A stretch of DNA of 64,000 bases from Methanomassiliicoccaceae archaeon (GCA_040776945.1 JAXGZN010000001.1:352001-416000); one strand, 5' to 3'. Positions 38,419 to 56,157 are shown, counted from the first letter of the stretch. Numbers and translations are program-made. The notes: generated by a model not told the origin, from the sequence alone.

Positions 38419-38462
38419 CCAGGTGCCAATCTATTTATCCCCACCTTTCTTAGCTTGGCCTC

Positions 38463-39422: not shown

Positions 39423-39561
39423 AGGCCTGGATGGGGACGGCCGACCTTGATCGCGCATTAATAAGCATAGAGCATGAAAACAATGAATAGGAAGAACAGA
39501 GCTTTAGCCCCTGGCCTGCGCGACGAGTACCAGGCACGACGGCGCCTTTGAGGGGACCACG

Positions 39562-40683
39562 ATGGACTTTGACGGGCTCGAGGAGACGATGGCCGGTGGA
39601 TGGAGGCAGTTCATCAGCGATGGCGAGGGTCCCATCACCACGAACGACAACGCCTATGAGCTATGCGCCGAGCTCATTGACGGAGGGTCCGCCTTCTTCA
39701 AGGTGATCAGTAAGTACGATGACGTGCTGGCGGACATACTGCAGAGGCCGAACTATAAGGCTGGAGATACTCTGCGCCTCATACTTCCGTTCCTCAAGGC
39801 ATATGGTGCGACAGACACATGGCTTCTCGAGTTCTCAAGGAAGAACATAGTGACGGTGCCTGGAGCCAGGAAGACCATGCGCTTTGTCCAGGAGTTCATG
39901 ACTCCTTTCATAGTGGCCACCTCGTACGAGCACTACATGAGCGCGGTGTGCGACGCCATCGGCTTCCCGCTGGAGAACACCTATAGCACCGCTTTGGAAC
40001 TGGACTCGGTGAAGATGGAGACGTGGGAGGCCGATCTGCTGAAGCGCTGCGCACACGAGATAGCCAGGATGGGCGAGATCAAGGTGCCCGATGGAGCGAG
40101 GAACATCGATGATCTCAAGGCACGGGACCGTGATCTCATCGCGCGCCTTGATGAGATATTCTGGGAAGAGCTTACCGACCTTGCTTCATACCAGCTGGTC
40201 CTTGACGTTAACCCCGTAGGGGGAGAGGAGAAGGCATCGGCGGTACTGGACATCCGCCGGAGGACGGGGATAGGTCTTGAGGACACCGCCTACGTGGGCG
40301 ACTCGATAACTGACGTTCAGGCGTTCCAACTGGTGCGTGAAGGCGGAGGCCTCACGCTGTCATTCAACGGCAACGAGTATGCGCTGCGGGAGGCGGAGTT
40401 CGCGGTAATCTCTGACAATACCGTGATAACCTCGGTGCTGGCCGAGGCCTTCCACAAGGCCGGTATGGAAGGCATCTGCTCCTTGGTCGATGACTGGAAC
40501 CTCGACGGGCTAAGATCCTCTGGATTAGTTAACTCATACCTGATGAGGGAGTTCGAGAGGACCTATCCGGAGAAGCTGCCTACGGTAGCGAGGATAACCC
40601 CTCATAACATGAAGTCGCTTACCAGACAGAGCCTGGCCTTCCGTCGCTCGGTGCGAGGGGAGACCATCGGAGCCCTTGGATGA
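39562..40683 (+). CDS. HAD-superfamily hydrolase similar to 'energy-converting hydrogenase A subunit R' (EhaR)
   Basis: FISDGEGPITTNDNAYEL, Y.AGDTL.LI.PFL, ATSY, YVGDSITD, SFNGN.YA. Confidence 0.78.
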   Translation: MDFDGLEETMAGGWRQFISDGEGPITTNDNAYELCAELIDGGSAFFKVISKYDDVLADILQRPNYKAGDTLRLILPFLKAYGATDTWLLEFSRKNIVTVPGARKTMRFVQEFMTPFIVATSYEHYMSAVCDAIGFPLENTYSTALELDSVKMETWEADLLKRCAHEIARMGEIKVPDGARNIDDLKARDRDLIARLDEIFWEELTDLASYQLVLDVNPVGGEEKASAVLDIRRRTGIGLEDTAYVGDSITDVQAFQLVREGGGLTLSFNGNEYALREAEFAVISDNTVITSVLAEAFHKAGMEGICSLVDDWNLDGLRSSGLVNSYLMREFERTYPEKLPTVARITPHNMKSLTRQSLAFRRSVRGETIGALG

Positions 40684-41070
40684 TCATAGGGCGCGGTCGA
40701 TGGCGTCGGTCATCATTTTTGCGAAACTTATCCATTCTTCCTCTTTGATGTCCGGGAACATGAACTTGGCACAGCTCTCGCACTTCCCCAGTTCTCGTTC
40801 CACCGCGTCGTCGAGAACGACGCTTACCTTGGGTACCATCCCCGCCCTCTTAAGTATGAGCTCAGAGCACCGGTTGCGGCAACCGCTTACTGCCACCAGA
40901 TGTTCCGGGTCTCCTCCGCTCATCCTTACCAGGATGGGCGATGCAGCTACGGTGCAAGCACTTATCTGAATGATGCGCTCGAAGTTCTCCCTTGCGAACT
41001 TCTCTACTGCCTTTTCGATTATGAGGGAGCGCTCGCCGTTCGCCCCGCAGACGACCACCATCACCCTCAT
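40684..41070 (-). CDS. DGC-domain putative zinc-binding protein
   Basis: VVCG...AC...VAVSGCRNRC plus CESC. Confidence 0.7.
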   Translation of the reverse strand: MRVMVVVCGANGERSLIIEKAVEKFARENFERIIQISACTVAASPILVRMSGGDPEHLVAVSGCRNRCSELILKRAGMVPKVSVVLDDAVERELGKCESCAKFMFPDIKEEEWISFAKMMTDAIDRAL

Positions 41071-41417
41071 GCGCCCATCTCCTGCAAGCTGGCAAGTATC
41101 TTGTTCTCGGCCGCCGAGACCGAGCGCTCATCAACTACGGCTGTCTTGTCGATTATCACCGTCTTCATAGGGATGAGTCCATGCATCATTAGTGTCTGCG
41201 TACCACAACATCCGTCACATCCCTCTACGACGATGGTGCGATTTGGGTCAAGGGACCTCAGTTCCTCGATGTACTTGTTAAGGCCAGCTCCCGCCGGGCA
41301 GGGCGTGTGGACCCGGATGTCCTTCTTCTCCGACACCCGCCGCAGTGCCTGGCGGACCACTCTGGCAGACGGAGAGAAACCTGCGCATATGAGAATATTG
41401 ATCGTTGCCACGCTCAT
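41067..41417 (-). CDS. DGC-domain putative zinc-binding protein
   Basis: ICAG...PCPAG...IVVEGCDGCC; 4-nt overlaps with both neighbours. Confidence 0.72.
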   Translation of the reverse strand: MSVATINILICAGFSPSARVVRQALRRVSEKKDIRVHTPCPAGAGLNKYIEELRSLDPNRTIVVEGCDGCCGTQTLMMHGLIPMKTVIIDKTAVVDERSVSAAENKILASLQEMGA

Positions 41418-43453
41418 CCCTCGAAGAACAGGCGGGGCTTGCCGACGCCGGTCACGGTGATAACTACCTCTAAGAGTATGCTTCCCCCCCAACCTCCGCT
41501 GAGCTTGGCCTCCTTTCGTTTTTCATCTATTATCACCTCAGCACTGTCGGCCCCAGAGGCAAGAGCCATCTCCTTGACCAGCCTGCCACCCTCCGCCTTG
41601 GCATACGCAATGGCATCGTCCATGTGCTCGAAGTCCCTCTTTTCCTGCATCCAATATAGAGTGCATGGAGGGTTCTCCATTTCTGCCAATCCTTTCTTTG
41701 GTCGTATGAGAAGATCTATGGATTCCATGACGTTGCCTGATATCGCCCCGGCAGCATTGCCTATCTCCGAGTTCTCGGGAAGCACCAGACTGGTCCCGAA
41801 TATCTTGGCCACCGTTGGGAGGTATGCTCCCACTGGTGCACCGATGCCTATGATCGGCTTGTTCAGCGCCAGATGGCAAGCGAAGTCCCGACGCCCGGTC
41901 CCTCGGACCATATTGTTCATAAGGGATGTCGCAACCTCGTCCAACTTGGCCTCTCCGACCTCCTCGAACACCAGTTTCCTCAGCACCTCGAAGGTGATCT
42001 TCTCGATGGCCGCTGTCTTTACAGAATCGATGAACTCGGTGACCGGTATCCCAAGAATCTCGGCCTGGACCTGTACTCCGAACTTGGAGGCTTCGGGGTC
42101 ATACTCGACGTAAGAGCCTTCGGCGTGCAGCATATCGGTCGGTGTGAGGCCGATGCGCTGTATGATGCCTAGACCCTCCATCTTCCTTAGGTTAAGTGAG
42201 AGCGGGTGCACGTTCAGGGCCTCCGCCAGCTCGTACAGCGACATGGGCTCCTCCTTTAAGAGGTCAAGAACCCTCCTTTGTTCTTCCCCGAGGTCGTGGC
42301 CGTTGGCCTCCCTGGAGAAGGTGAAGAACTCAGTAACCTGAGGGACGGTGTCAAGGTCCATGTAAGAGGGAGTCCATCGACCCTTGCTTCCGATGAGCGC
42401 TTGCAACTTGGGCCTAAGACTAGGGAAGCTGGAGGATGCAATGCATAGCGGCATTACCCTAAGGGCGCTGATCTGTATCTTCCCGCTGGCGACCACCACT
42501 CGAGAGTCGCCTCCGATGCCGGAAGTGAAGATATCCACTGCCCTCACCCTTGTGCGCCATCCGCCCAGCATTGCTCCTTCAGCGTCAAGGCGGGGTCGCC
42601 CGCCCCTCAGGATGCCTATGTCGGTGGTCGTGCCTCCAACGTCGACGATAATAGCATCATCAAGGCTGGTCAGCGCCTTCGCGCCGATGATCGAGGCTGC
42701 CGGCCCTGAAAGGATTGTCTCGACCGGACGTTCCTTGGCCACAGATTCGTCCATGAGGGAACCGTCCCCTTTGACAATCATCAAAGGAGCTTTTATGCCA
42801 AGACGGTCTCGGACGTTCTTGATCGAAGCTATTAGATCTGTTATTATGGGTATCAGGCGAGCGTTTAGCACAGCGGTGATCGTCCGCTCATGGAAACCTA
42901 GGGCCGATGAGAGTTCGTGACCGCACACGACCGGGTAGGGAGCTAGCGACTTCACAAGCTCCCTGACTGCGATCTCATGCTCCGGGTTCCTGACGCTCAG
43001 ATAGCTAGATATGGCGAAGGCATCAACCTTGTCCTTCACAGAACACACGAACTCCCTAGCGCCATCCAGGTCCAGCTCGTTCTTCCTGACCCCTTCTAAG
43101 TTATGGCCCCCTCTCAGCTGGACGATCTCGTCCACTGGTATATTGGGAACAGCTTCATGTCCTATGACGATAAGCCCGACCCGGCAGCCCTTGCCTTCCA
43201 CCACCGAGTTGGTAGCGAGGGTCGAGGACACTGCCAATAGGCGCACCCTATCGAAGAGGGACTTGTCCAGAGCGGAGATGGCCTTGCCGATCCCGATAGT
43301 AAGGTTCTCACGAGTGGTCAGGGACTTTGCCTTGGTCAATACCGCACCGCTCGCCATGTTCAGGATAGCGGCGTCTGTATAGGTGCCGCCGGTATCGATC
43401 CCCAATCCCAGGTTGATCTCGCCTTCGTTGCTTGAAGCTTTCATTGTTCCCAC
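41414..43453 (-). CDS. Hydantoinase/oxoprolinase-family ATPase (MapA-like methyltransferase-activating protein)
   Basis: GIDTGGTYTD, STLATN, RNPEHE, ER..TAVLNA, SGPAAS, DVGGTTTD, GGDS, TPTD.LH, GNAAGA. Confidence 0.85.
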   Translation of the reverse strand: MGTMKASSNEGEINLGLGIDTGGTYTDAAILNMASGAVLTKAKSLTTRENLTIGIGKAISALDKSLFDRVRLLAVSSTLATNSVVEGKGCRVGLIVIGHEAVPNIPVDEIVQLRGGHNLEGVRKNELDLDGAREFVCSVKDKVDAFAISSYLSVRNPEHEIAVRELVKSLAPYPVVCGHELSSALGFHERTITAVLNARLIPIITDLIASIKNVRDRLGIKAPLMIVKGDGSLMDESVAKERPVETILSGPAASIIGAKALTSLDDAIIVDVGGTTTDIGILRGGRPRLDAEGAMLGGWRTRVRAVDIFTSGIGGDSRVVVASGKIQISALRVMPLCIASSSFPSLRPKLQALIGSKGRWTPSYMDLDTVPQVTEFFTFSREANGHDLGEEQRRVLDLLKEEPMSLYELAEALNVHPLSLNLRKMEGLGIIQRIGLTPTDMLHAEGSYVEYDPEASKFGVQVQAEILGIPVTEFIDSVKTAAIEKITFEVLRKLVFEEVGEAKLDEVATSLMNNMVRGTGRRDFACHLALNKPIIGIGAPVGAYLPTVAKIFGTSLVLPENSEIGNAAGAISGNVMESIDLLIRPKKGLAEMENPPCTLYWMQEKRDFEHMDDAIAYAKAEGGRLVKEMALASGADSAEVIIDEKRKEAKLSGGWGGSILLEVVITVTGVGKPRLFFEG

Positions 43454-43525
43454 GTCCGTCTGGTCCTCTCCTCTATCGGCTTAAGTTCTTGGACTAACGT
43501 ACCGGCCAAAGGCCGGCACTTCGCC

Positions 43526-45472
43526 CTATAGTTTGATCTTGGGCCTCCCCGTCGCCGTGGCGGTCAGGTCCACCCAGTTGGTGAACTTCATCTCTTGTCC
43601 ATATCCATCACAGAAGCGATGCTCGTCCACGTCAAGCTTGACCGATACATCGACAGCCCCGGTCCTCTTTATCCGCTCCTTGACAAAGTACTCGGCATAG
43701 GATTTTCCGGCCGCGAGCGCGGAGTCGTAGGTGGAATATTCCATGGGAGATGATCCTGGTCCGAACACTACGTACTTGAACTCCTTGGGAAAGATGCGAA
43801 CGGTCGCGGTCTCCGTCACCTGGCTCAGCACTGCGCCTACAGCGTTGCCCACATCATGGTTAGGAGGTATGATGACCGGACATCCCAGCCGGGCCTCCAA
43901 CGGCTTCACCATGACATCTACAGGAGCGCCAACGCCGACGATGGGCACTTTGGGCGTCGCTACGACCTTTAGGTCCTTCAGAATTCCCGATCCGGCGGTC
44001 GAGCGCAGCAGGAGGTCGAAGCCACTGGAATCCGGAATGTCGCCGCCCGCATCGATCAGCCCTTTTTTGACGATCTCCTCAGCGATACGAGTGATCGATA
44101 GCTCCATGATCATATCGGACAGCTTGCCAGGCTCGTCACCGTATTTTCCAGCGAAGACCCTGAGGGCGATCTCCGACGCTTCCTTGTTCCCCCCGGGGAA
44201 CATGCCCTTGACATGCATGATGTCAGTAGGTGTGAGCCCTGTCTGAAGTATGTACCCTCTATTGCGCAATGATTTCAATTGGTCTTCGACGAAGACCACG
44301 TCGTGGACGTTGTTGATCGCCTCGAAGAGCGTACAGTCGCCGCGCTCCCAAACGAACCGTAGAACGCTCTTCTCCTTCTCTGACAGGGCGGCGGTCTCCT
44401 TCCTCACCGGCATAAAGAAGGTGAGAGTGTTCTCCGACATCATCCGCTCCTTGATACCAGGACGTTCCTTTGTTGCTATTGCCAGGGGCAGCACCCGGTC
44501 CGGGCCGAGCCTGAGGTTGCCCTTATCGTCCATGCTTACGCTGGAATCACCGCCCAATCCAGCTGTCCAGATATCAATAGCACGGACCCTGGTCCTCCAC
44601 TTTCCGACCATGGACCCTTCCATGTTCAGCCTGGGGAACCCATCCTGGAGATATGCGATGTCCGTCGACGTTCCCCCTACATCGACCACAAGGCAGCTGT
44701 CTAGACCGGAGATGGCACGGCCGCCCATTAGACTTGCCGCCGGGCCGGAGAGCACGGTATCGACCGGACGCTCTTTAGCCACCGGCAGGCTCATCAGGCC
44801 GCCATCTCCCTTGAACACATATATAGATGCATCGATGCCCCTGGATATGAGGGAGCGCTCCATAGAGTCCAGGAAATCGTTGATCACAGGCAACAGTTTA
44901 GCATTGAGGACGGCGGTCACCGTGCGCTCGTAGATGCCAAGCTCCGCTGTCAGGTCGTGCCCCATGACCACGGGCAAGTTATACTTGGATTGAACCAGAC
45001 CTTTGGCCGAGGCCTCCTGGATGGGATTGGCCACACTGAACATTCCAGATATGACAACGGCGTCCATCTCGCGGCAGATGTCGTCAACGGCCTCCTCCAG
45101 GCCCTTCTCGTCGAGAGGTTCGATCATCTTGCCCATGGAATCGTAGCCGCCTCTGATGAATGCGGAGCGTTTGGCCTCAAAGGACCAGTCCGCCTGGGGG
45201 GTCCACCCTATCCCTATAAGGCCGACGTCCCCTCCCCTTCCCTGCAGAATAGCATTGGTGGCCAGAGTGGTGGAGAGACCGACCAATTTGATATCCCCTG
45301 GGTTGACCCCGTTGCCCTTCACCGCCGCGTCGATAGCGCCGATGATGCCTATGGAGAGGTCGTGATAGGTGGTGCGGGCCTTGGCCTTGACCAGCACTTT
45401 TTTTGTGTCCAGATCTACGATCGCGGCATCGGTGAACGTTCCACCGGTATCAACACCAAGTCCTAGTGTCAT
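43526..45472 (-). CDS. Hydantoinase/oxoprolinase-family ATPase (MapA-like), paralog of the downstream gene
   Basis: GVDTGGTFTD, STTLATN, SGPAAS, DVGGTSTD, GGDS, TPTDIMH, GNAVGA. Confidence 0.85.
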   Translation of the reverse strand: MTLGLGVDTGGTFTDAAIVDLDTKKVLVKAKARTTYHDLSIGIIGAIDAAVKGNGVNPGDIKLVGLSTTLATNAILQGRGGDVGLIGIGWTPQADWSFEAKRSAFIRGGYDSMGKMIEPLDEKGLEEAVDDICREMDAVVISGMFSVANPIQEASAKGLVQSKYNLPVVMGHDLTAELGIYERTVTAVLNAKLLPVINDFLDSMERSLISRGIDASIYVFKGDGGLMSLPVAKERPVDTVLSGPAASLMGGRAISGLDSCLVVDVGGTSTDIAYLQDGFPRLNMEGSMVGKWRTRVRAIDIWTAGLGGDSSVSMDDKGNLRLGPDRVLPLAIATKERPGIKERMMSENTLTFFMPVRKETAALSEKEKSVLRFVWERGDCTLFEAINNVHDVVFVEDQLKSLRNRGYILQTGLTPTDIMHVKGMFPGGNKEASEIALRVFAGKYGDEPGKLSDMIMELSITRIAEEIVKKGLIDAGGDIPDSSGFDLLLRSTAGSGILKDLKVVATPKVPIVGVGAPVDVMVKPLEARLGCPVIIPPNHDVGNAVGAVLSQVTETATVRIFPKEFKYVVFGPGSSPMEYSTYDSALAAGKSYAEYFVKERIKRTGAVDVSVKLDVDEHRFCDGYGQEMKFTNWVDLTATATGRPKIKL

Positions 45473-45565
45473 GATATGTCTTCCTTACAGCTACACTGGA
45501 ATAACTAAAAAGGGATTATGTTGGCCCCGAATAATTATGTCTAAAAAACGACAATCGAACGTAGA

Positions 45566-45588
45566 CCAATATTGGCGGCAATATTGGC
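45566..45588. promoter_or_regulatory. Tandem palindromic boxes in the divergent promoter (candidate operator)
   Basis: CCAATATTGG followed 12 nt later by CAATATTGGC. Confidence 0.45.
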
Positions 45589-45650
45589 TTGAACCGGACC
45601 TCGGTCCCAGAAAGGATAACTAAGGGTGTTTCCATCTAGGGCCTGTCCAC

Positions 45651-46283
45651 ATGATGGAAGCCGAGTTCTCCATCCGAGGGCTGTGTTTTTGGATCTCGGA
45701 TTTCGCCGCCGAGAGATCCTGCACAGTGACCATTACGGAGTGTATCCCCTGGAGGAAGAAAGGAGGGCAGGCCCTGTTCGAGATCAATGGACTGGAGGCC
45801 GATATTGAGAGTGCTATGAGCGACGTACGGGCAAGGCCGGAGATCGTAAGCCTGGAGGTCGTGGAATCTTCCGAGGGGCGAGTGGTCGGCTCGGTGGCAG
45901 TGCGTGAGCTCTGGATAATATGGGCCATCGTGGATTGTGGCTGCTTCCTTGAATCAGCCTGGTCTAGTGGGGACAACAAGGTGTATTTCAAGGTGCTATC
46001 GGGGAGCGAGGGTTCACTGCCCAATCTGATCAAGACCATATCGTCCCGCGGAGCAGATATCGAGATCAATCGCATTGCACGAGCGGTCGATCGTCCGGTG
46101 GTCACCCGGAAGCAGGAGAAGGTTCTGAGACTCGCGCTGGAGAGGGGTTTCTTTGATTTTCCTCGTAAGGTAACCCTGGAAGAACTGGCTCTGATGTCAG
46201 GGATGTCCACCTCAACGGTGGCCGAGACCATCAAACGGGGGGAGCGGAACATTCTCAAGAGCTTTTTCGAGAAGAGAAGATGA
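45651..46283 (+). CDS. Bacterio-opsin activator (HTH_10) family transcription regulator
   Basis: TRKQEKVLRLALERGFFDFPRKVTLEELA..GMS.ST..E.I.RGE. Confidence 0.9.
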   Translation: MMEAEFSIRGLCFWISDFAAERSCTVTITECIPWRKKGGQALFEINGLEADIESAMSDVRARPEIVSLEVVESSEGRVVGSVAVRELWIIWAIVDCGCFLESAWSSGDNKVYFKVLSGSEGSLPNLIKTISSRGADIEINRIARAVDRPVVTRKQEKVLRLALERGFFDFPRKVTLEELALMSGMSTSTVAETIKRGERNILKSFFEKRR

Positions 46284-46486
46284 GGGACGGGCAGAAAGAT
46301 CGATAGGCCGTAATGGCCCGCTGTCAGCGGGCCGCCCCGTATGACCCTCTTGTGTTCCCTGGTCGATCTGCCCGTCGAGCTCATTAAAGAGATCGGCGCT
46401 CAGATCATCTCGTTACAGCTAATATCTCTGATTAGAAACGAGCATTTGCTGACCAATACGAGGAGCCTGCTCATCTTGCCTAACGC

Positions 46487-46954
46487 TCATCCTCCATGGT
46501 GGGCCATGCCCTTCTCTGTTTCATAGTAGTCTTTGATTATTTCATAATTCAGTCCATGCTTTTTGAAGACCGTCTCGATTGCCTCAAGGCTTTGTTCCCT
46601 TACTTCTGGGTCCCAGATGCCGTGTACGATTACGTGCAAGGTAAGTTCAGCATCCTGGAAGGTCGCCTCATGACCAAAGTCGTGCGTTATGTTCGGCCCT
46701 TTGCCCAGATCGATGAGGCTAGCGGACATCGCGCCGTTCGAGGCCTTCAGGAAAGCCTTGACATGGCCGACCAGATCAGCGCCGTGGTCCATGCATCGCT
46801 TTGTGATCACTGAGAGGAGCTCCCCCAAAGCGGCGGCCGCCTCGTCACGGGTCATGGTTTTTGGAGCGTGGATCATCATGTGGGTGGCGAACTTGCCTAG
46901 TTCATCTGCCTCTCGATGCATCTCGATGTGTATGTCCTCGTCGATATCTCCCAT
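46487..46954 (-). CDS. His-rich hypothetical protein coupled to the CobW GTPase
   Basis: C..HGADLVGHVKAF, LHVIVHGI; starts 2 nt after cobW stop. Confidence 0.7.
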   Translation of the reverse strand: MGDIDEDIHIEMHREADELGKFATHMMIHAPKTMTRDEAAAALGELLSVITKRCMDHGADLVGHVKAFLKASNGAMSASLIDLGKGPNITHDFGHEATFQDAELTLHVIVHGIWDPEVREQSLEAIETVFKKHGLNYEIIKDYYETEKGMAHHGG

Positions 46955-46956
46955 GC

Positions 46957-47625
46957 TCAACCGCTCCCGTACTGCTGCCGTAGGAGTTCGCGCTCCACCG
47001 CTTCATCGTACCTCGATGATGACCTTTCCGCAATTATTTGGGCCACCTCCTTCACTCCCATTCCTTTATGGGTGGAGATCCTCATGATCTCACACTTAGG
47101 ATTGATCTCCTTGACCAGATCCTCCGAGCGTTTGATGCGCCCCTCGTCCGAGGCGTCGACCTTGTTGATTAGGCAGACATCCGCCTCCCGTATCTGAGTT
47201 ACCACGAGCCTGCGCACAGTGCCCAGTAATGCATCGATCCGTGTCGAGTCTACCAGTGTCAGAACAGGCGCGTGATCGATCGTCACTGGCACCTCGGCCT
47301 CGGAATACTCGGCCGCTCGCTTCAGACCCCATGGTATAGCAACGCCTGATGGTTCAACGATGACGATATCTGGATTAAAGCTCGTATAGAGCAGCGCTAG
47401 AGTATTGGCGAAATTGCCGGCGATCTCGCAGCATATGCATCCGCCGGACATTTCCCTGGCTTTGAGACCATAGGAATCTACGATCTTGAAATCGACATTG
47501 ATCTCGCCTACATCGTTGACCACGATTGCGATGCGCTTCCCCCTGGTCACCAGTTCTTTGGCGACCTCGATAAGCAGCGTGGTCTTGCCGCTGCCCAAAA
47601 AGCCTGCGATCTGTGCGATCTTCAT
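46957..47625 (-). CDS. CobW/COG0523 G3E GTPase metallochaperone
   Basis: GFLGSGKTT, VNDVGEINVD, GGCICC, VEPSG, NKVD. Confidence 0.9.
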   Translation of the reverse strand: MKIAQIAGFLGSGKTTLLIEVAKELVTRGKRIAIVVNDVGEINVDFKIVDSYGLKAREMSGGCICCEIAGNFANTLALLYTSFNPDIVIVEPSGVAIPWGLKRAAEYSEAEVPVTIDHAPVLTLVDSTRIDALLGTVRRLVVTQIREADVCLINKVDASDEGRIKRSEDLVKEINPKCEIMRISTHKGMGVKEVAQIIAERSSSRYDEAVERELLRQQYGSG

Positions 47626-47736
47626 GGCACCACTTTCTCGTGATATGGCCTACACAGTATAAAGATAGTTTGAGAAATCGACATTCTGGAAGGAAGGACC
47701 CATTATCAATAGAGAATTTGAACATGGAGATCATGT

Positions 47737-47770
47737 GGGCATGAACAATGATGCCTGGCATCATTTGCCC
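47737..47770. repeat. Inverted repeat upstream of cobW (operator or terminator)
   Basis: AATGATGCC-T-GGCATCATT (47747-47765) flanked by GGGCA...TGCCC. Confidence 0.55.
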
Positions 47771-47801
47771 GTGATCTTGGCCAGATGTTGGGCTTCTTTC
47801 A

Positions 47802-48608
47802 TTACGGGCCTCTTTCGCCGAAGAAACCCCTCAGGCAAGAATGAAGGAGGCCTTGTGATACTTCCTCGATGCCTCCGGGCGGCAGATCGCCTAGAACGAA
47901 CGGACCATACTCCACCCGGATAAGGCGCATCACCTTCAGCCCGAGGAAGGCCATGATGTTGCGTACCTCACGGTTCTTGCCCTCCCTGATAGAGACGATC
48001 AACCAATGGTCGTTCCCTTTTCCATCCCTCTCTATTTCAATATTTATGGGTCCATACCTGATGCCCGCAATGGTCACGCCTCCCTTGAGCGGTTCTAGTT
48101 TTTTGCGGTCCACGGTCCCCCTGACGCGCACCTTGTAGCGCCTTAACCAGGCATTCTGTGGCAGCTCAAGGTATCGCTCCAGTTCCCCATCGTTGGTGAG
48201 GAGCAGAAGCCCTTCGGTGTTGAAATCGAGGCGCCCGACGCTCATTACGCGCGGCATCCCGGAAGGTAATCTATCAAAAACGGTCGGGCGCCCCCCAGGG
48301 TCCCTCATCGCAGTTATCGTACCAGTCGGTTTATGATATCGCCATAATCGAGTTCTTTCAGCCCTCTGTAAAGGCCTCCCGTCGATCGTTATGACGTCCC
48401 CGTACATTACGTTCAGTACCGGCGATGTCAACACCGATCCGTTAACGGTGACGCGGCCATCCGCGATCATCCTCTCAGCGTCTCGGCGCGAGCAGACGCC
48501 AGCCCTAGCGATCACCTTGGCGACCCTCTCGCCCGCAGAGGAAGTTTTTTCTCCCGAGCTTACGGTCTCACACGAACAAGGCCCTTCCACATGATGGCGC
48601 ATTGACAT
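47802..48608 (-). CDS. rluB: Bacterial-type rRNA pseudouridine synthase (RsuA family, RluB-like)
   Basis: S4 domain AKVIARAGVCSRRDAE, YHKP.G, SVGRLDFNTEGLLLLTNDG, EGKNREVR, RLIRVEYGP. Confidence 0.88.
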   Translation of the reverse strand: MSMRHHVEGPCSCETVSSGEKTSSAGERVAKVIARAGVCSRRDAERMIADGRVTVNGSVLTSPVLNVMYGDVITIDGRPLQRAERTRLWRYHKPTGTITAMRDPGGRPTVFDRLPSGMPRVMSVGRLDFNTEGLLLLTNDGELERYLELPQNAWLRRYKVRVRGTVDRKKLEPLKGGVTIAGIRYGPINIEIERDGKGNDHWLIVSIREGKNREVRNIMAFLGLKVMRLIRVEYGPFVLGDLPPGGIEEVSQGLLHSCLRGFFGERGP

Positions 48609-48716
48609 GCCCTCGTAATATGCCTCCTATTGAGCATCCGCGACCGGTTTCATGAAACTAGTCCTGCTTTAAGGTTGCCGAAAAAGAGCGCATCGTTTAA
48701 GATATTTGAAAAAACG

Positions 48717-49370
48717 TCATCTCCTCTTGCGGTTGAGCGACGCCCTGACCAATGCAACAGCCTCCTGAGCGCTCACGGCATGAAGGTCCGCGCCGATCTC
48801 ATCGGCGAACTCCTTTGATGTTGGAGGTCCACCTATCATTATCAAGGTATTGGACCTAACGCCGTCCTCCACGAGCGCATCCACCGTCGTCTTCATTGAA
48901 TCCATGGTCGGAGTCATCAGAGTGCTCATGGCGACGATTGACGCCTTCGATAGCTTGGCCTCACGGACAAATGTATCCTCGGGCTGGTCCTTACCTAGGT
49001 CGCGAACGTCATAGCCGGCGGCCACCATCATGGCCCGCACGATGTTCTTTCCAATGTCGTGGACGTCACCCTCAACGACGCCGATGACGATGACCGCCCG
49101 TTCCGATGCTGCTTCCACGGACAGATGGGGGAGCAGGAGGTTAAGCGCCGCATACATCGCATCAGCGGCGAGAAGCACCTGGGGCAAAAAAATCTTGTGG
49201 CGGGAGTAACGGTCCCCGATGATGTTCATGCCTTTTATGAGTCCGCTGTCTATGGCCTCCATTGCACTCAGACCGTGGCGTATGGCGTTATTGGCATGGC
49301 GTATGGCATCCTCCTTCTTGCCTGAAACTACTGCGTGCTCGAGCCCGGCGAGGATGCGCGCCTTGTCCAT
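48717..49370 (-). CDS. Methyltransferase cognate corrinoid protein
   Basis: FLPQVLLAADAM cap, GVVEGDVHDIGKNIV B12 motif, STLMTPT, IGG.P. Confidence 0.93.
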   Translation of the reverse strand: MDKARILAGLEHAVVSGKKEDAIRHANNAIRHGLSAMEAIDSGLIKGMNIIGDRYSRHKIFLPQVLLAADAMYAALNLLLPHLSVEAASERAVIVIGVVEGDVHDIGKNIVRAMMVAAGYDVRDLGKDQPEDTFVREAKLSKASIVAMSTLMTPTMDSMKTTVDALVEDGVRSNTLIMIGGPPTSKEFADEIGADLHAVSAQEAVALVRASLNRKRR

Positions 49371-49770
49371 GTTCCACCTTCCTGACAAGGACTTGATGGG
49401 AATGACCTGGTCCTGTCCGGTCGATGGATGAGGATTTCAATATTAATCCTTGGCACGGAAATGGGTGACCGATTCCGGACAGTGGACGGTCGAACGGCAA
49501 TGAACGTCAAGAGGGAAGCAAATAACATCGACCTATCTTGAGGCGCTCTTGTTCTCTGAAGGCTTATTATCTGACTTCACGGGCCAATGGACGCCTTAAC
49601 TACAAGCCCGTGTTCGTAAGCGCCTGATTAGACTGCCGTCGCATGGCCGACAGGGCTGCCTTAACGCATCTTATCGACTACGGCCGATATGCGGGTTCGT
49701 GAACGGGGAAAATTGGCAGTGGCATCCACCAAGGCCGATAACGTCAATAATGATAGGAAGTGTGCGGCGT

Positions 49771-50796
49771 TCAGAGAGCCATGTATGTCGCGTCGCGCAG
49801 AGCCAGAATATTGTCCAAAGGAGTATCGAACGGAAGCTCACATGCAGGCGCCAAGATCGATGCGTGGTCCTCGTTGTGCAAGGAACGTGCCCTTGAGACC
49901 TCGGCCCTTATCTGCTCCGGAGTTCCGCTATAGATCAGTGCGCGATGATCTATGCCAGCAACGATGCGGGTTCCGCCAAGACGCCCCCTGGCCTCATCGT
50001 ACCCGCTCCAATTCACTGGAATATGCATTGCTTCCGGGCGATACGCTTCTATCTCTTCCAGGATGTACGGCGATTCAGAGCAGTTGTGTACGATCACCTT
50101 CATCCCTTCGCCGTGGATGGTCTTGATCACAACACCGGTATGGTCTAGGTCGAATTCCCGGCAAAGCCCCAGCATGTTCTGGTCAGCATCCGCTAGCGCG
50201 TCGCTGATGAATATCACATCGACCCCAGAGACCGCTGCAAGATGTTTCACTTGCATTTTTTGCGAATCGGTTATTGTTCGAAGGAGCTTGTGCGCAAGGT
50301 CTGGTTCGACCATCTGAGCGATGAGGAGGTTTTCATAACCTATCACGCTCCCGGCGATTATGAACGGTGAACTCATGCCTCCGAGCACAGGGACCTCCTT
50401 CCCAATGGCAACGTTCATCATGGTAGCTGCTTTCAGGGGCACCGACCATTGTGGGTGCGATAAGGGATCGATAGGCTCAAGAAGTTCAACTTCCTCGAGA
50501 TGTATCGGTGTTTCTTTAGGATAGCGAACATCGCTTGAGAAGTGCAGGACCGCACCGAATGCGTTGGCCTCCATCAACAGGTCGCCCCAGCCGGCCATTA
50601 CGTTATCGTAACCGAACACCTTATGGGAGGCTAGGGATAGACGCGCGAACTTATGTGGATCGCAGAACGCCTCTCTCAAGCTCAGCCCAGTTCGCTCGAT
50701 GAGGTGTTGTGCTCCGCCAAGATGTTGGTACATCACTTGAGGCCGCTCTATCGGTTCCCCGTCCAACGCTGCCAAGAACATGTCCTTCGTGTTCAT
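49771..50796 (-). CDS. MtaA/CmuA (UroD-fold) methylcobalamin:thiol methyltransferase
   Basis: EANAFGA, HNC zinc ligands, APACELP.DTP..NI.A. Confidence 0.85.
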   Translation of the reverse strand: MNTKDMFLAALDGEPIERPQVMYQHLGGAQHLIERTGLSLREAFCDPHKFARLSLASHKVFGYDNVMAGWGDLLMEANAFGAVLHFSSDVRYPKETPIHLEEVELLEPIDPLSHPQWSVPLKAATMMNVAIGKEVPVLGGMSSPFIIAGSVIGYENLLIAQMVEPDLAHKLLRTITDSQKMQVKHLAAVSGVDVIFISDALADADQNMLGLCREFDLDHTGVVIKTIHGEGMKVIVHNCSESPYILEEIEAYRPEAMHIPVNWSGYDEARGRLGGTRIVAGIDHRALIYSGTPEQIRAEVSRARSLHNEDHASILAPACELPFDTPLDNILALRDATYMAL

Positions 50797-50946
50797 TGAT
50801 CAACCATCCCTCCGTAGAGAACGGAACTCTTTTTCCAATGTTCATATCGAGGGCGTGCCATATCTCGTTGTTGTCGCTTTGACCCTCATCATATGTCGAT
50901 TGTCGGTGATTATTGATACCGCACCAAGCCACATCATGATCTGACC

Positions 50947-51270
50947 TTAACGGCTTTTTTTCCAGCCTTGCTCCCTTATATAATCATCAATTACGTTGGA
51001 CATGTGCGTCGACAGGTTGCGCTCATCATACTTGTTGCCAACATGGTCGACCGTCCGGATCAGGAACTCGTGGTCACATTTTGGGCACCTGGCCTTTGGG
51101 CATGACCTGACAGCTTCAGGACAGCCTCTGCACGCAAAGGTTCGACCATATGTCAACGAGAACTCGAATGAGCATTGAGGGCACTTGAACTTCTTGATCG
51201 CGCTCACCGTCTGCTCAGAGAAACCGTGCTCCCTCATTGCCCTCAAATAACTTGGATCGATATTGCTCAT
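50947..51270 (-). CDS. Small Cys-rich zinc-finger/Fe-S protein
   Basis: CPQC...ACRGCP.....C...RCPKC.HEF. Confidence 0.75.
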   Translation of the reverse strand: MSNIDPSYLRAMREHGFSEQTVSAIKKFKCPQCSFEFSLTYGRTFACRGCPEAVRSCPKARCPKCDHEFLIRTVDHVGNKYDERNLSTHMSNVIDDYIREQGWKKSR

Positions 51271-51403
51271 GTGACTCCCTGCTGAACTTTCATGGTTTTA
51301 CGTTCGTTCCTTATCATCGCAAGTTGTATAAAATAAAAAATGGGAACAGGAGGAGGGTTGCTCCCTCCTCATGCTCCAAAGCGTTCTATGACCGGCGTTC
51401 CGC

Positions 51404-52504
51404 TTACTTGCAGACGACCTGGCCATACTTTTTGACCGCATCCACCTGCGCCTTGATGTTCTCAAGCTTGGTGCTAACGCCAGGGGGTACTTCGCAGTTC
51501 GAAGCGATGCAGTACTTGGACTTCAACCCTCGAGCGCATAGTGCTGTTGAGACCTCGTGGCACAGGTCCATGGTGACCTTTTCCATCTTCTCCTTGCTCC
51601 AGCGCACATATCCCTGGGGGTCGATCGTTCCACACAGGACGCAGTTGTCCGCATATCCCTTCTCTATGCAAACCTTGGCCGATGGAGAGCCGGGGATAAG
51701 CGGATAATAGGCCATGGTGTACACATCCGGCTTCATCTCCTTGACCTGGGAGTCCATATGTGGCAGGTCGGCGCAATTGTGTATCGCTAGGGCCATACCC
51801 TCCTTGCGGACCAATTCGTTGAGACCTCCAGCATATTTGTGCTGACCCTCGAACTCATGATATTCCTTGTCACCCAGGCAGGAGTATGAACCCCATAGGT
51901 AGTCCCACATGCAGGCGTTGGGCTTTGCCGTACCCATTCTCTTCACCATTTCTCTGAGGTACTCAGTAAAGACTGCCAGTGCCTTGTGGACAGCGGAGGG
52001 GTTGTTATACAAGTCCATTAGGACCTTCTCTGCCCCTGCACACTGGGTTAGGGACAGCAGCGGACCCTCCAGAAATCCCGATGTGATGGTCTCGGTCTTC
52101 AGAGCCTCCGAGAACAACCTCGTGCCTTCCACGATGACACCCGATCGGCCTTTTGATGGGTCGGGCATCTGGAGCTTCTCATAGTCCTCCGTGCTTTTTA
52201 TCACGGGAACATCCACGAAAGGAGTGTTTTGTTCATCCATGCGGACGTGTGCTCCAAAGTCGCCAGCGATGACCGAAAGGTCCATCAGGCCTATGGTGAA
52301 GTCCAGGTCGAAAGTCTTCTGTCCCTGGATAAACCCGGCAGCGAACTTCTTGGGGTCTGTAGCCCAATCCCTATATAGCATCGTGCCGTCTCCGACCGTT
52401 CGGCGGCTGACACCACAGGCGATGGGATAGGTGGTAAGCCGGTCCACCGGCTCATCTTTCAGAGATGCAACTACTCTCTCCTGGTGAGTCATTTTGTCTG
52501 CCAT
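51404..52504 (-). CDS. MtaA/CmuA (UroD-fold) methyltransferase
   Basis: MTHQERV, DLSV.A..FGA, GPL, HNC, GTIDP, ASNCEVP. Confidence 0.88.
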   Translation of the reverse strand: MADKMTHQERVVASLKDEPVDRLTTYPIACGVSRRTVGDGTMLYRDWATDPKKFAAGFIQGQKTFDLDFTIGLMDLSVIAGDFGAHVRMDEQNTPFVDVPVIKSTEDYEKLQMPDPSKGRSGVIVEGTRLFSEALKTETITSGFLEGPLLSLTQCAGAEKVLMDLYNNPSAVHKALAVFTEYLREMVKRMGTAKPNACMWDYLWGSYSCLGDKEYHEFEGQHKYAGGLNELVRKEGMALAIHNCADLPHMDSQVKEMKPDVYTMAYYPLIPGSPSAKVCIEKGYADNCVLCGTIDPQGYVRWSKEKMEKVTMDLCHEVSTALCARGLKSKYCIASNCEVPPGVSTKLENIKAQVDAVKKYGQVVCK

Positions 52505-52516
52505 GTTTTTTCCTCC

Positions 52517-53158
52517 TTATATTGAGGCCTTTACTTTGGCCACGGCCTCCTGGGCGTTCACGGCGTGAAGGTCCGCACCGATCTCTTCGGCGAACTCTTG
52601 GGAAGTGGGCGCGCCGCCAATTATGATCCTTAACTGAGCACGGAGGCCCTCCTCCACCATTGCGTCCACGGTGGCCTTCATCGAGTCCATGGTAGGGGTC
52701 ATCAGGGTGCTCATCGCAAGGACCTGTGCGTTGTTCGCCCTGGTGGTTGTGACGAAGGTGTCGGCCGGAACGTCCCTTCCGACGTCATGCACATTGAAGC
52801 CAGCGGCGGTGAACATGGTCTTCACGATGTTCTTTCCAATATCGTGGACATCCCCCTCAACAACGCCGATGACCATGTCTACCCTTTTCGCCGCTGCCTC
52901 CCTGGGAATGTGGGGCAGCAAAATGTCCAGAGCGCTGTACATCGCGTCAGCGGCGAGCAATACCTGAGGCAGGAAGATGGTGTGAGCAGCGTACTTCTCA
53001 CCAATGATCATCATCCCCTTGATCAGGCCCGAGTCAATCGCGTCGAGCGGCTTCACGCCACTGGAAATGACCTCATTGGCAATCTTGGCGGCATCCGCTT
53101 TTTTTCCGTTTACAACAGCTTGCTCCAATCCTGTCAGTATTTGGTCTTTTTTCGACAT
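52517..53158 (-). CDS. Methyltransferase cognate corrinoid protein
   Basis: GVVEGDVHDIGKNIV, GRDVP, STLMTPT, IGGAP; close paralog of 48717-49370. Confidence 0.94.
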   Translation of the reverse strand: MSKKDQILTGLEQAVVNGKKADAAKIANEVISSGVKPLDAIDSGLIKGMMIIGEKYAAHTIFLPQVLLAADAMYSALDILLPHIPREAAAKRVDMVIGVVEGDVHDIGKNIVKTMFTAAGFNVHDVGRDVPADTFVTTTRANNAQVLAMSTLMTPTMDSMKATVDAMVEEGLRAQLRIIIGGAPTSQEFAEEIGADLHAVNAQEAVAKVKASI

Positions 53159-53177
53159 ATCTTTCCATCTATCAATT

Positions 53178-53279
53178 CTTGGGCCCTTGTCCTCACAACA
53201 GGGCCGAGGTTTTTCCCCTTAGCTACTATGAATCCCTCGAGGACAGTTAATGATTGTTATGGATGGAGCATCCATCCAT
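53178..53279. promoter_or_regulatory. Two hairpins in the upstream region of the corrinoid/MT operon
   Basis: GGCCC-TTGT-CCTC-ACAA-CA-GGGCC and perfect ATGGATGGA-GCA-TCCATCCAT (53259-53279). Confidence 0.45.
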
Positions 53280-53749
53280 TAGTTTCTTCCTTTACTCAAC
53301 ATCTGGCAAGATTTTTCGCTCAGCCACCTTTTAACGCAGATGTGCATGTTGGAACGTAGAACGTATCTTGCTCCACGGAGCTTTCGAGATCATGCCTTCG
53401 GCTACATACGCTATCTTTCAGAGATGTTAGGCATCAATAAGTCATTGGCTCTAGGAGCTTCATTTATCATCTTGAACGCCGTTACAGATGTTTCAGTATC
53501 CTGAATCAAGAGAGCTGGAGAATGTGGCCTTAAGTGACCTGTTTATGTGAGCTAGATGTTTGGCCCATTGCCCTCTGATTGGATCGAGTGGATCCCTTGC
53601 CAGCCTTATACGTTTTAAGAGGGTCGCTGAGGTAGCAGTTTTCGATCTTCAATATGTCCTTTTGATCAAATTGGATATCGGTCATGTTTATTTTTCTAAG
53701 AGCGCCGTAACTTTCTCCCTGCCCCGATAAAATTCCCTTAAGCCATATG

Positions 53750-54298
53750 TCAACGGATCCGGGCCAGGCCTATAAGGGATCTCACCTCGTTGATATCAAG
53801 TTGCTCCTCCATCGTAACAAGGCTAAACCCTGCATAACTGCCTATTATCTCGACCTTGACGATAATGTCAGGCTGCTCCAGGTCCACGATGCCCTTCTGG
53901 ATGGGTTCGGTGAGCATCTTAACCAGGTCAAGGTTGGATCCGCCTTGGTACCTCCTTTTATTGAGCTCCATCTTCCAACGGTCACGTTCCCCGATCCTCT
54001 CGCCGAACGTTCTGGCCGCGGAGACCATGCTGTCAGGCTCGGAACTTACCCATTCTTCGATCGGCGTCCATCGATGAGTGTGACGAAAAAGCTCAGGGAA
54101 CCGCATGGCAAAGGCCCGGAGCTTCTTGGTGGCCTCTTTGCTGTCGCCGGTCACCCGGAGCAGAGCAAGGCCGCTGACCGACGATTCCATCATATCCTCG
54201 AGGACGATGCCGTTCTCCTTGAGGCGTTGGGCGATCTCCTCCTCGGCCTTCGCCTTGCTAGTGGGATGGAACGTGACGATTATGTTGTAGTCCCTCAT
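53750..54298 (-). CDS. THUMP domain-containing protein
   Basis: WKMELNKRR, VDLEQPDIIVKVEIIG THUMP signature. Confidence 0.8.
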   Translation of the reverse strand: MRDYNIIVTFHPTSKAKAEEEIAQRLKENGIVLEDMMESSVSGLALLRVTGDSKEATKKLRAFAMRFPELFRHTHRWTPIEEWVSSEPDSMVSAARTFGERIGERDRWKMELNKRRYQGGSNLDLVKMLTEPIQKGIVDLEQPDIIVKVEIIGSYAGFSLVTMEEQLDINEVRSLIGLARIR

Positions 54299-54371
54299 CG
54301 CTGCTCCCATAATTTCATTGAGAACCTTGCGTAGATAACTCTATCGAGCTCTGAGGAGCTATCGACCGGCG

Positions 54372-54839
54372 ATGGTCGAGATCGAGGTCCGGGCCATGGG
54401 CACGGGCGATGTCCCCGATGTTCGCTCGCTGATAGAGCGTACGGTGAGAGCATCATACCGGGACGCCTACTCGGAGCGGGCGATCGAGTTCTTCATCCAC
54501 TACCACGGTGAGAACGCGATAATGAAAGATCTCCGGCATAGTACCTGCCTGGTCGCTCTTGTGCGGGGCGAGATCGTCGGCACGGCAACCCTGCGCGGCG
54601 AGAGCATCATCAGGGTTTTCGTGGAACCGGAATGGCAGGGGACCGGCATCGGAAGGGAGCTGATCGGCTCCCTGCTGGACCAGGCCAGAGCGAGCGGATC
54701 GGAGCTAGTGAAGCTGGACGCTTCATTGGTCTCGAGGACGTTCTACGAGCGACTTGGCTTCCTGGTGGTCGCCGATAGGTCCCACGATCTCGGGAACGGA
54801 CATGTCCTTCCTTATCTCAAGATGATGTTACGACTGTGA
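54372..54839 (+). CDS. GNAT family N-acetyltransferase
   Basis: VFV.PEWQG.GIG, FYERLGF. Confidence 0.92.
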   Translation: MVEIEVRAMGTGDVPDVRSLIERTVRASYRDAYSERAIEFFIHYHGENAIMKDLRHSTCLVALVRGEIVGTATLRGESIIRVFVEPEWQGTGIGRELIGSLLDQARASGSELVKLDASLVSRTFYERLGFLVVADRSHDLGNGHVLPYLKMMLRL

Positions 54840-56084: not shown

Positions 56085-56157
56085 CGGCGGTGTAACGGGC
56101 CCATCGAATAAATACCAAGGTCCGGTTTTTTCTACTAACGATACTATATGGTCGAGC

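Follow-up and report, generated by a model that had tools for sequence, protein, structure and literature searches.

A putative methylthiol-type corrinoid methyltransferase locus with an attached set of candidate helper genes in a Methanomassiliicoccaceae archaeon

Introduction

Methyl-reducing methanogens of the order Methanomassiliicoccales live in guts, digesters and wetlands, and their share of the methane formed depends on the methyl compounds that they can use. The closest described relatives of the system treated here are corrinoid methyltransferases that use methylated sulfur compounds. MtsA of Methanosarcina barkeri carries out both half-reactions of methyl transfer, and MtsD, MtsF and MtsH of Methanosarcina acetivorans, in each of which a corrinoid domain is fused to a methyltransferase domain of the MT2 type, are needed for the use of methanethiol (MeSH) and dimethyl sulfide (DMS) (10.1101/548461; PMC7374477). 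Homologues of MtsAB have been annotated in Ca. M. alvus and M. luminyensis (PMC3814188; PMC4153887, Table S10) and in other members of the order (PMC5011839, PMC7824343, PMC10804542). Metagenome-assembled genomes from mires encode homologues of mtsA and mtsD/F/H, with transcripts that point to methyl sulfides, and the available text of the same report knows no isolate of the order that grows on these compounds (PMC10805028).

Here we describe a corrinoid methyltransferase locus in a Methanomassiliicoccaceae archaeon whose genome (2.17 Mb, two contigs, here C1 and C2, 99.84% complete) encodes McrA. The window, that is, the whole stretch of 64,000 nucleotides that was analysed, corresponds to JAXGZN010000001.1:352001-416000 of GCA_040776945.1 (G000:C1:352001-416000), and positions below are counted from its first letter unless a contig is named. 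An initial annotation of the window had proposed that the genes at 40684-53158 are a self-contained island without a substrate-specific methyltransferase (MT1) and a candidate for a new methylotrophic pathway. The listed genes proved to be real and in place according to open reading frame (ORF) calls, Pfam and NCBIfam, and a Pfam scan of the 16 locus ORFs gave no match to the MtaB, MtmB, MtbB, MttB or RACo/RamA families, in agreement with the claim that a classical MT1 and RamA are missing from the locus. The core of the locus turned out to be of a known kind, and what is new is the set of helper genes attached to it.

Results and Discussion

Kinship of Cor1 and MT-A

Two neighbouring genes form the core of the locus, one for a corrinoid protein (Cor1) and the other for a zinc methyltransferase of the uroporphyrinogen decarboxylase (UroD) fold (MT-A). 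They are separate ORFs, with 12 bp between the stop of Cor1 and the start of MT-A. Cor1 matched the NCBIfam model TIGR02370 with 206.9 bits. MT-A scored 26.5 bits with MtaA_Meth, 39 bits with MtbA and 58.4 bits with the subfamily model PRK06252, all below the respective cut-offs of 400, 600 and 244 bits, which were reached by the controls, namely Methanosarcina paralogues and, for PRK06252, the paralogue C2:493079-494068 of the same genome.

We compared MT-A with 29 UroD proteins from three Methanosarcinaceae genomes (two Methanosarcina sp. and Methanolapillus ohkumae), among which NCBIfam labels 12 MtaA and 2 MtbA, a third falling barely under the MtbA cut-off. MT-A is 33-36% identical (E 1e-55 to 1e-63) to the C-terminal methyltransferase domain of four fused corrinoid-UroD proteins of 631-649 aa, and at most 22% identical to every stand-alone UroD paralogue of the same genomes. 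Likewise, Cor1 and the N-terminal corrinoid domain of the fused proteins share 43-48% identity (40-48% for Cor1 and its paralogue Cor2 together), in contrast to 28-31% for Cor1/Cor2 against an MtaC-like partner (Cor1 31%). The fused proteins are Methanosarcina sp. and Methanolapillus homologues picked by their architecture, from which we infer that they are orthologues of MtsD/F/H, and are not the M. acetivorans proteins themselves.

In a quick IQ-TREE phylogeny of 43 rows, whose references took their labels from NCBIfam (MtaA, MtbA) or from their architecture (fused proteins; pairs of a UroD and a corrinoid gene), the MT-A family and the fused proteins fell into one clade with an SH-aLRT value of 99. 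The other clade comprised the MtaA, MtbA and UroD-plus-MtaC-like rows together with the genome's own canonical MT2. The approximately unbiased (AU) test, in which the groups were defined after a first tree had been seen, rejected a topology holding MT-A with the MtaA/MtbA-type rows (p 9.2e-8). The phylogeny proposed in the initial annotation as a check thus placed MT-A outside MtaA/MtbA, and did the same for the second methyltransferase, MT-B (below). Both proteins keep the zinc ligands noted earlier: H242, C244 and C337 of MT-A (H-x-C...C) are invariant in 26 sequences. The two are about 23% identical to each other, and the mean column identity within the MT-A family is 71%.

On sequence grounds, then, Cor1 and MT-A are a split form of the MtsD/F/H-type fused corrinoid/methyltransferase proteins, and the methyl-sulfur donor guessed at first fits, because the two proteins are closest to the two halves of such fusions. 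Like MtsD/MtsF/MtsH, which are the closest kin of both halves, the locus has no separate MT1 and shows the zinc H-x-C...C ligands; unlike them, it keeps the two parts as two genes 12 bp apart, to which ZnF, a HydA ATPase, CobW/p157 and DGC proteins are attached. It shares with MtsA/MtsB of M. barkeri, whose name the literature uses for the order's homologues, a UroD-fold methyltransferase with a corrinoid gene and no MT1. A UroD and MtaC-like pair of Methanosarcina sp. (L222), which we take from the protein sizes to be MtsA/MtsB, nevertheless falls in the MtaA/MtbA-type clade; BLASTP at E 1e-3 did not match its UroD protein to MT-A, and its corrinoid protein shares 28-31% identity with Cor1/Cor2.

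A word-indexed search yielded 279 relatives of MT-A at E <=0.001. The best 120 are 59-100% identical to it, and those named among them belong to Methanomassiliicoccales or to an unclassified archaeon. A HMMER scan of 1.84 billion representatives with MT-A gave 24 cluster representatives at E <=1e-30, and the named ones among ten of these come from an unclassified archaeon, Methanonatronarchaeum, Coriobacteriales and Nitrospinota. A fused relative also exists: P0181 (636 aa) has a corrinoid domain ahead of the methyltransferase domain. Searching the PDB sequences with MT-A returned UroD alone (E 0.003). CmuA was absent from the results of a tblastn search of MT-B against plasmids, which gave five weak UroD matches. 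We also noticed six URO-D copies in Methanolapillus ohkumae (G063:C1:864252-896822), each beside a corrinoid gene, with identical scores and a spacing of 6318 bp.

Proposed function and substrate

We are inclined, with some reserve, to regard the locus as the Methanomassiliicoccales form of a methylthiol-type (Mts) corrinoid methyltransferase system. Gene content, kinship, synteny, zinc ligands and presence in RNA libraries are observed, while the substrate, the functions of the helper proteins and the idea that MT-A catalyses both half-reactions are inferred. Cor1 would carry the cobamide. MT-A, if it works like MtsA and the fused MtsD/F/H proteins, would methylate Co(I)-Cor1 from a donor that resembles a thioether, be it methanethiol, dimethyl sulfide, methylmercaptopropionate or something related, and would then hand the methyl group to coenzyme M (CoM) for H2-dependent reduction to methane. 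HydA1 and ZnF would keep the corrinoid protein active or restore it, spending ATP, and CobW with p157 may deliver metal, either zinc to the methyltransferase or cobalt/cobamide to the corrinoid protein. Within the genus the locus further includes Cor2, HydA2 and the regulator HTH_10, and a cassette with MT-B and a copy of ZnF appears to have been inserted in this genome alone. No isolate is known to use the substrate implied by the annotation of the pair, and its placement with MtsD/F/H-type proteins provides a concrete list of candidate substrates.

Several points weigh against this proposal. In vitro, MtsF/CmtA prefers methyl-tetrahydromethanopterin, and the MT2-like MtpA acts as an MT1 only (10.1101/548461); kinship therefore fixes neither the substrate nor bifunctionality, and the identity of MT-A to the fused proteins is only 33-36%. 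Methanomethylophilus alvi Mx-05, which has MtsAB homologues, gave neither growth nor methane on DMS plus H2 in the accessible part of its description, where other methylated thiols are suggested (PMC10673518). More generally, the names mtsA/mtsB of the literature are not tied to MT-A by accession, and the M. luminyensis orthologue of MT-A now stands under a different one. As for the helpers, gene neighbourhood is the one line of evidence for their roles, and activation could be the work of the three RamA genes that the genome carries elsewhere.

The behaviour of MtpA, a member of the MT2 family that lacks CoM activity and needs another MT2 (10.1101/548461), suggests a different division of labour, in which MT-A is only the substrate-specific MT1 for Cor1 and a separate MT2, either C2:493079-494068 or MT-B, methylates CoM. 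The former is the genome's one paralogue above the PRK06252 MT2 cut-off (366.7 vs 244 bits), and the latter lies between MT-A and Cor2. We judge this arrangement rather improbable: MT-B is missing from 20/20 related loci and hence cannot be a general MT2 partner, the fused relatives of MT-A have a single methyltransferase domain, and the conserved core comes without any MT2 gene.

With the Mts-type core retained, some other compound might replace the methyl sulfide as donor, for example a methoxylated aromatic, a methyl halide, methylated arsenic or selenium, or some unknown metabolite of guts or digesters; the idea of a new substrate would then hold, with an enzyme family that is known. In favour of such a donor are the failure of M. 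alvi to use DMS in spite of its Mts homologues and the want of a methyl-sulfide-growing isolate, as far as the two reports can be followed (PMC10673518, PMC10805028). The MT-A family is moreover tight (71% mean column identity), yet 33-36% identical to the fused Mts proteins, and neither MtaB, MttB nor MtbB had a Pfam match anywhere in the 99.84% complete genome, of which the only classical MT1 genes are two MtmB genes with one in-frame TAG each. We nevertheless hold it to be unlikely, as the nearest characterised kin of MT-A act on thioethers (PMC7374477) and mire metatranscriptomes point to methyl sulfide use by the order (PMC10805028). A preprint on arsenic demethylation (10.64898/2026.08.27.747368) holds, in its available part, nothing on this system, and the searchable literature gave no paper joining Methanomassiliicoccales, corrinoid and uroporphyrinogen decarboxylase.

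A role outside methanogenesis seems to us very doubtful. Here the pair would serve as a methyl shuttle that links CoM to a second carrier, a role proposed for CmtA/MtsF, or would methylate thiols to form MeSH or DMS. The preference of MtsF/CmtA for methyl-tetrahydromethanopterin in vitro (10.1101/548461) and a MtrH homologue beside a HydA paralogue in the genome are consistent with a shuttle; on the other side, the methyl-branch C1 pathway is reportedly missing from the order (PMC4153887, available part), and the MtrH homologue lies 70 kb away from the locus. That homologue, with one in-frame TAG, is situated outside the window at G000:C1:329503-332336, beside a third HydA-like paralogue, and the pair is about 6 kb from a MT-B-like URO-D gene (C1:322953-323981).

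Gene content and conservation of the locus

The genes of the locus are listed in Table 1, together with their occurrence in 20 loci around MT-A orthologues that were taken from other genomes of the order and onto which the window proteins were mapped. The same layout was seen in two more loci, L012 and L013, which are probably repeats of two among the 20.

Table 1. Genes of the corrinoid methyltransferase locus in the window, and number of the 20 loci with an MT-A orthologue in which each is found nearby
Gene	Position	Strand	Family and features	Loci
Cor1	52517-53158	-	Corrinoid protein, Pfam B12-binding + B12-binding_2; DxHxxG motif GDVHDIGKN; first core gene	18/20 (beside MT-A)
MT-A	51404-52504	-	Zinc UroD-fold methyltransferase, PF01208 (URO-D); MtsD/F/H-type clade
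ZnF	50947-51270	-	107 aa, 7 conserved Cys (CPxC...CxGC...CPKxRCxKC)	18/20
MT-B	49771-50796	-	Second zinc UroD-fold methyltransferase, PF01208	0/20
Cor2	48717-49388	-	Corrinoid paralogue, 66% identical to Cor1	2/20 (same-genus L049, L052)
RluB-type pseudouridine synthase	47802-48608	-	PF00849 + S4; NF007976 160 bits, cut-off 290	2/20 (L049, L052)
CobW/COG0523-type GTPase	46957-47625	-	PF02492 124.6 bits; 222 aa; GCICC motif	10/20 (with p157)
p157	46487-46960	-	His-rich partner of CobW; 4-bp overlap with CobW	10/20 (with CobW)
HTH_10 (Bat-type) regulator	45651-46283	+	PF04967 51.6 bits; divergent from rest of locus	2/20 (L049, L052)
HydA2	43526-45472	-	Hydantoinase_A/Hydant_A_N; ASKHA ATPase paralogue ('MapA-like' in the initial annotation)	2/20 (L049, L052)
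HydA1	41414-43453	-	Hydantoinase_A (PF01968) + Hydant_A_N (PF05378); ASKHA ATPase, conserved core ('MapA-like')	18/20 (HydA1-type)
DGC2	41067-41492	-	PF08859 DGC domain; likely true start near 41396	9/20 (both DGC genes)
DGC1	40684-41070	-	PF08859 DGC domain; conserved CGANGE and GCRNRC motifs	9/20 (both DGC genes)
HAD-like hydrolase u373	39562-40683	+	Possible further member; no Pfam match

MT-A orthologues (E <=1e-60) were found in 33/61 sampled genomes of the order, the present one included, and in 3/6 other genomes of the same genus. The minimal form of the locus consists of the four genes Cor1-MT-A-ZnF-HydA1, whose recurrence in 18/20 loci goes beyond chance, and Cor1 and MT-A are split in all 18 loci that carry both. 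Such a distribution does not support a new methylotrophic pathway, all the more as MtsAB/MtsDFH homologues had already been annotated in the order (PMC3814188, PMC4153887, PMC10805028).

The locus is AT-richer than its surroundings, as had been supposed by eye: GC in 2-kb windows is 0.514-0.569 over 40001-54000 vs 0.576-0.629 outside, and that of the locus genes is 0.497-0.573 vs 0.596 for the genome. The description as an island nevertheless did not survive comparison within the genus. In BLASTN against two same-genus loci, the window aligned from ~34-35.5 kb to ~54.4 kb with a single gap at 49481-51422 (1.9 kb), which holds MT-B and ZnF and is a segment found only in this genome. Horizontal transfer of the whole locus was ruled out by this genus-level synteny. 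In same-genus relatives ZnF is located between p157 and HTH_10, and in relatives it directly precedes HydA1. MT-A is closer to orthologues from a different family of the order (79% identity) than to those of its own genus (only 64-65%), whereas the same genus supplies the closest relatives of Cor1 (89-92%), CobW (91-94%) and HydA1 (82-83%); HTH_10 is 82-84% identical in L049 and L052. From the identities and the BLASTN alignment we conclude that the locus is old and syntenic; they suggest exchange or insertion for the MT-A/ZnF/MT-B stretch only. Archaeal markers within the window are an archease and the HTH_10 regulator.

Nor is the locus necessarily self-contained, since the genome has three RamA/RACo genes, all outside the window, and one canonical MT2 elsewhere, so that help from outside is possible. 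Pfam found 11 URO-D matches in the genome, of which C2:493079-494068 is the sole one above the PRK06252 MT2 cut-off, and small corrinoid proteins account for five of its B12-binding matches.

Two loci on contigs titled as bacterial, L131 (Bifidobacteriaceae bacterium) and L145 (Ruminococcus sp. CAG:579), carry the archaeal Cor1-MT-A-ZnF-HydA1 module and are probably mis-binned.

MT-B and a second module

MT-B scored 112.7 bits with MtaA_Meth, 71.8 with MtbA and 125.5 with PRK06252, again below all cut-offs. Its alignment to MtaA (4ay7) spans both zinc motifs, and the ligands H237, C239 and C319 (H-x-C...C) are invariant in 22 sequences. In the 43-row tree MT-B forms a clade of its own with two other paralogues of this genome, and the AU test rejected nesting of this clade among MtaA/MtbA (p 3.8e-4). 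A word-indexed search returned only 42 relatives. Of 59 MT-B-related loci in species genomes, 57 are titled as Methanomassiliicoccales-type or as 'Methanobacteriota'/'Methanomicrobia archaeon', the remaining two coming from one record titled only 'metagenome genome assembly'. Judged from these comparisons, MT-B is a member of a Methanomassiliicoccales-specific UroD clade and, in this genome, a local insertion. Its absence from all 20 related loci argues against the two methyltransferases being a designed pair, although MT-B may be the methyltransferase partner of Cor2.

Distant members of the clade (35-43% identical) sit in a second recurrent module with RamA, sometimes CobW-p157, a MT-B-like and a MtaA-like protein, a HydA2-like protein, a Pfam-less protein of ~460 aa, a regulator and a corrinoid protein. 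A HydA-like gene is near the MT-B-like gene in 23/59 loci, and CobW-p157 is directly upstream of it in 14/59. This second Methanomassiliicoccales module (L073, L113, L105, L072 and 19 further loci) is also without a classical MT1. We considered the 457-469-aa Pfam-less protein as a divergent MtaB and rejected it; the sequence is hydrophobic and repetitive, and looks like that of a membrane protein.

HydA-type ATPases and ZnF

HydA1, the 'MapA-like' protein of the conserved core, is one of four HydA paralogues in the genome. An alignment of 19 HydA sequences showed invariant ASKHA phosphate motifs and no invariant Cys. The model of HydA1 (pLDDT 85) has the full-length HyuA-type fold, with TMq 0.57-0.60 and 15-18% identity to subunits of N-methylhydantoinase, acetone and acetophenone carboxylase and caprolactamase; RACo (4c1n_K) came at rank 50 in the same fold search. 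HydA1 thus has in common with RamA/RACo the ASKHA ATPase core and, as we propose, the same job, the ATP-dependent conversion of Co(II) to Co(I). It differs from them in having the full HyuA-type fold and in lacking invariant Cys as well as the RACo_C_ter, RACo middle and ferredoxin domains. HydA and RamA are not simple substitutes for each other, because RamA genes exist elsewhere in the genome and, in other genomes, beside HydA2-type genes.

Of 589 HydA relatives detected in species genomes by a pattern search, we examined the best 80 (79 loci). There is a corrinoid gene no more than 8 kb away in 25/79 loci, and in 13/59 of those that are not Methanomassiliicoccales-like. The remaining 54/79 have no corrinoid gene within reach, which speaks against the helper role, though many are cut by contig ends. 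In the loci with Pfam annotation, methyltransferase and corrinoid genes directly adjoin HydA in 6/6. Five of the six carry MttB-family methyltransferases (Bacillota, Syntrophomonadaceae, Anaerolineae, Desulfobacteraceae and Methanolapillus), and the sixth, from Coriobacteriia, has UroD-type ones. HydA2 is 44-49% identical to the HydA genes of MT-B-like loci, and its type accompanies MT-B-like/MtaA-like modules elsewhere.

A similar arrangement has been described in 'Ca. Formimonas warabiya' strain DCMF, where a hydantoinase gene, named 'HydA' on the synteny maps, stands inside a glycine betaine methyltransferase cluster and is co-induced with these methyltransferases in the proteome, no function being assigned to it in the available part of the report (PMC9768040). 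The DCMF-type layout recurs in 5 bacterial loci and in Methanolapillus; unlike the present locus, the glycine betaine clusters have MttB-family MT1s and pterin-binding MT2s, and no ZnF, p157 or DGC partner. In M. acetivorans, the hydantoinase genes MA4395/MA4396 are near mtaCB2 and mtsF, and a frameshift of MA4396 arose in an evolution experiment (PMC11619418; 10.1101/2025.05.05.652248). The searchable literature contained no paper pairing Methanomassiliicoccales with hydantoinase.

Because its relatives directly adjoin corrinoid methyltransferase genes in bacteria and in Methanolapillus, the HydA-type ATPase is probably a general helper of corrinoid proteins. The Pfam families and the full-length fold, which HydA1 shares with the HyuA subunits of N-methylhydantoinase, 5-oxoprolinase/caprolactamase and acetone/acetophenone carboxylase, could instead mean that the HydA ATPases, with ZnF, activate a small-molecule substrate with ATP before demethylation. 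We do not expect this to be so. No match to Hydantoinase_B (HyuB, PF02538) was found in the 99.84% complete genome by a search that was positive in 6/14 genomes, the identity to hydantoinase-type enzymes is 15-18%, and the constant neighbours here are corrinoid methyltransferase genes. In addition, the HydA family accompanies unrelated MT1 types (MttB-family and UroD-type) that share only the corrinoid protein.

If the HydA-type ATPase is indeed a helper of corrinoid proteins, a further-reaching proposal may be entertained, though tentatively and with less confidence than the assignment to the Mts type: HydA could represent a second, undescribed class of ATP-dependent corrinoid methyltransferase helper, whatever the MT1 type, which works with the seven-Cys ZnF in Methanomassiliicoccales and whose client here, Cor1/MT-A, uses a donor not yet offered to cultured members. 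It could even be the gene behind MAP of M. barkeri (Daas et al. 1996), an activator that autophosphorylates with ATP and activates MT1 (PMC5007285), to which the earlier label 'MapA-like' points; the papers found for MapA itself were unrelated. MAP genes are marked near mta genes in the legend of Fig. 4 of PMC3814188. The link between HydA and MAP is a hypothesis. The function of HydA would bear on corrinoid proteins in the Co(II) state that reductants fail to reactivate, as reported for MtpA/MtpC, of which the corrinoid protein was purified as Co(II) (10.1101/548461).

The seven Cys of ZnF are conserved in an alignment of 19 sequences. Homologues of ZnF occur in 12/79 HydA loci, all Methanomassiliicoccales-like, and those of p157 and the DGC proteins are likewise confined to Methanomassiliicoccales-like loci among the 79. 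We also found a ZnF paralogue (33% identical) at L007:6257-9691 (G000:C2:39257-42691), near a URO-D paralogue, DUF7479 and a radical SAM protein with a HMPTM-type zinc ribbon.

Presence in RNA libraries

The Cor1/MT-A pair, present in about half of the sampled genomes, is also present in RNA libraries. Six runs recorded as RNA contain 52-71% of the words sampled from 46400-53200. Four of the six, all sludge RNA libraries, were compared over 38000-56500 using contigs of at least 99% identity; the contigs span most of this range, and three of them bridge the MT-A/Cor1 border. In all four runs the summed contig depth is highest in the four bins of 50957-53424 (21-84 vs at most 12.8 in the other 26 bins), but these depths are contig-wide and cannot rank genes, carry-over of DNA is possible, and the runs may be one campaign, all of which tempers the use of the libraries in support of the proposed function.

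Other proteins of the locus

CobW consists of only the nucleotide-binding G-domain and is without the C-terminal domain of COG0523 GTPases. Its best NCBIfam match was 'CobW-related selenoprotein' (119 bits, cut-off 180), and the GCICC motif has Cys here. Its partner p157 gave no Pfam or NCBIfam match, and has four invariant His (H15, H66, H109 and H113). The p157 model (pLDDT 85) showed weak fold matches and no clear family, the GTPase YjiA (4ixn_A) being at rank 29 with TMq 0.39. It is conceivable that p157 stands in for the missing C-terminal domain of CobW, and we regard it as a candidate metal-binding domain.

The PF08859 domain of DGC1 and DGC2 is a small Cys-bearing DGC domain, and not a diguanylate cyclase. 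The RluB-like synthase is an enzyme of bacterial type, found at its place between Cor2 and CobW only in the same genus, and is probably unrelated to methyl transfer. The product of u373 had an atlas feature match of 0.99 to clusters of HAD hydrolases, with one neighbouring cluster named EhaR. The gene is beside the HydA1/DGC block in 6/20 loci, and in L047, L050 and L057 it shares the strand of HydA1 and is its immediate upstream neighbour.

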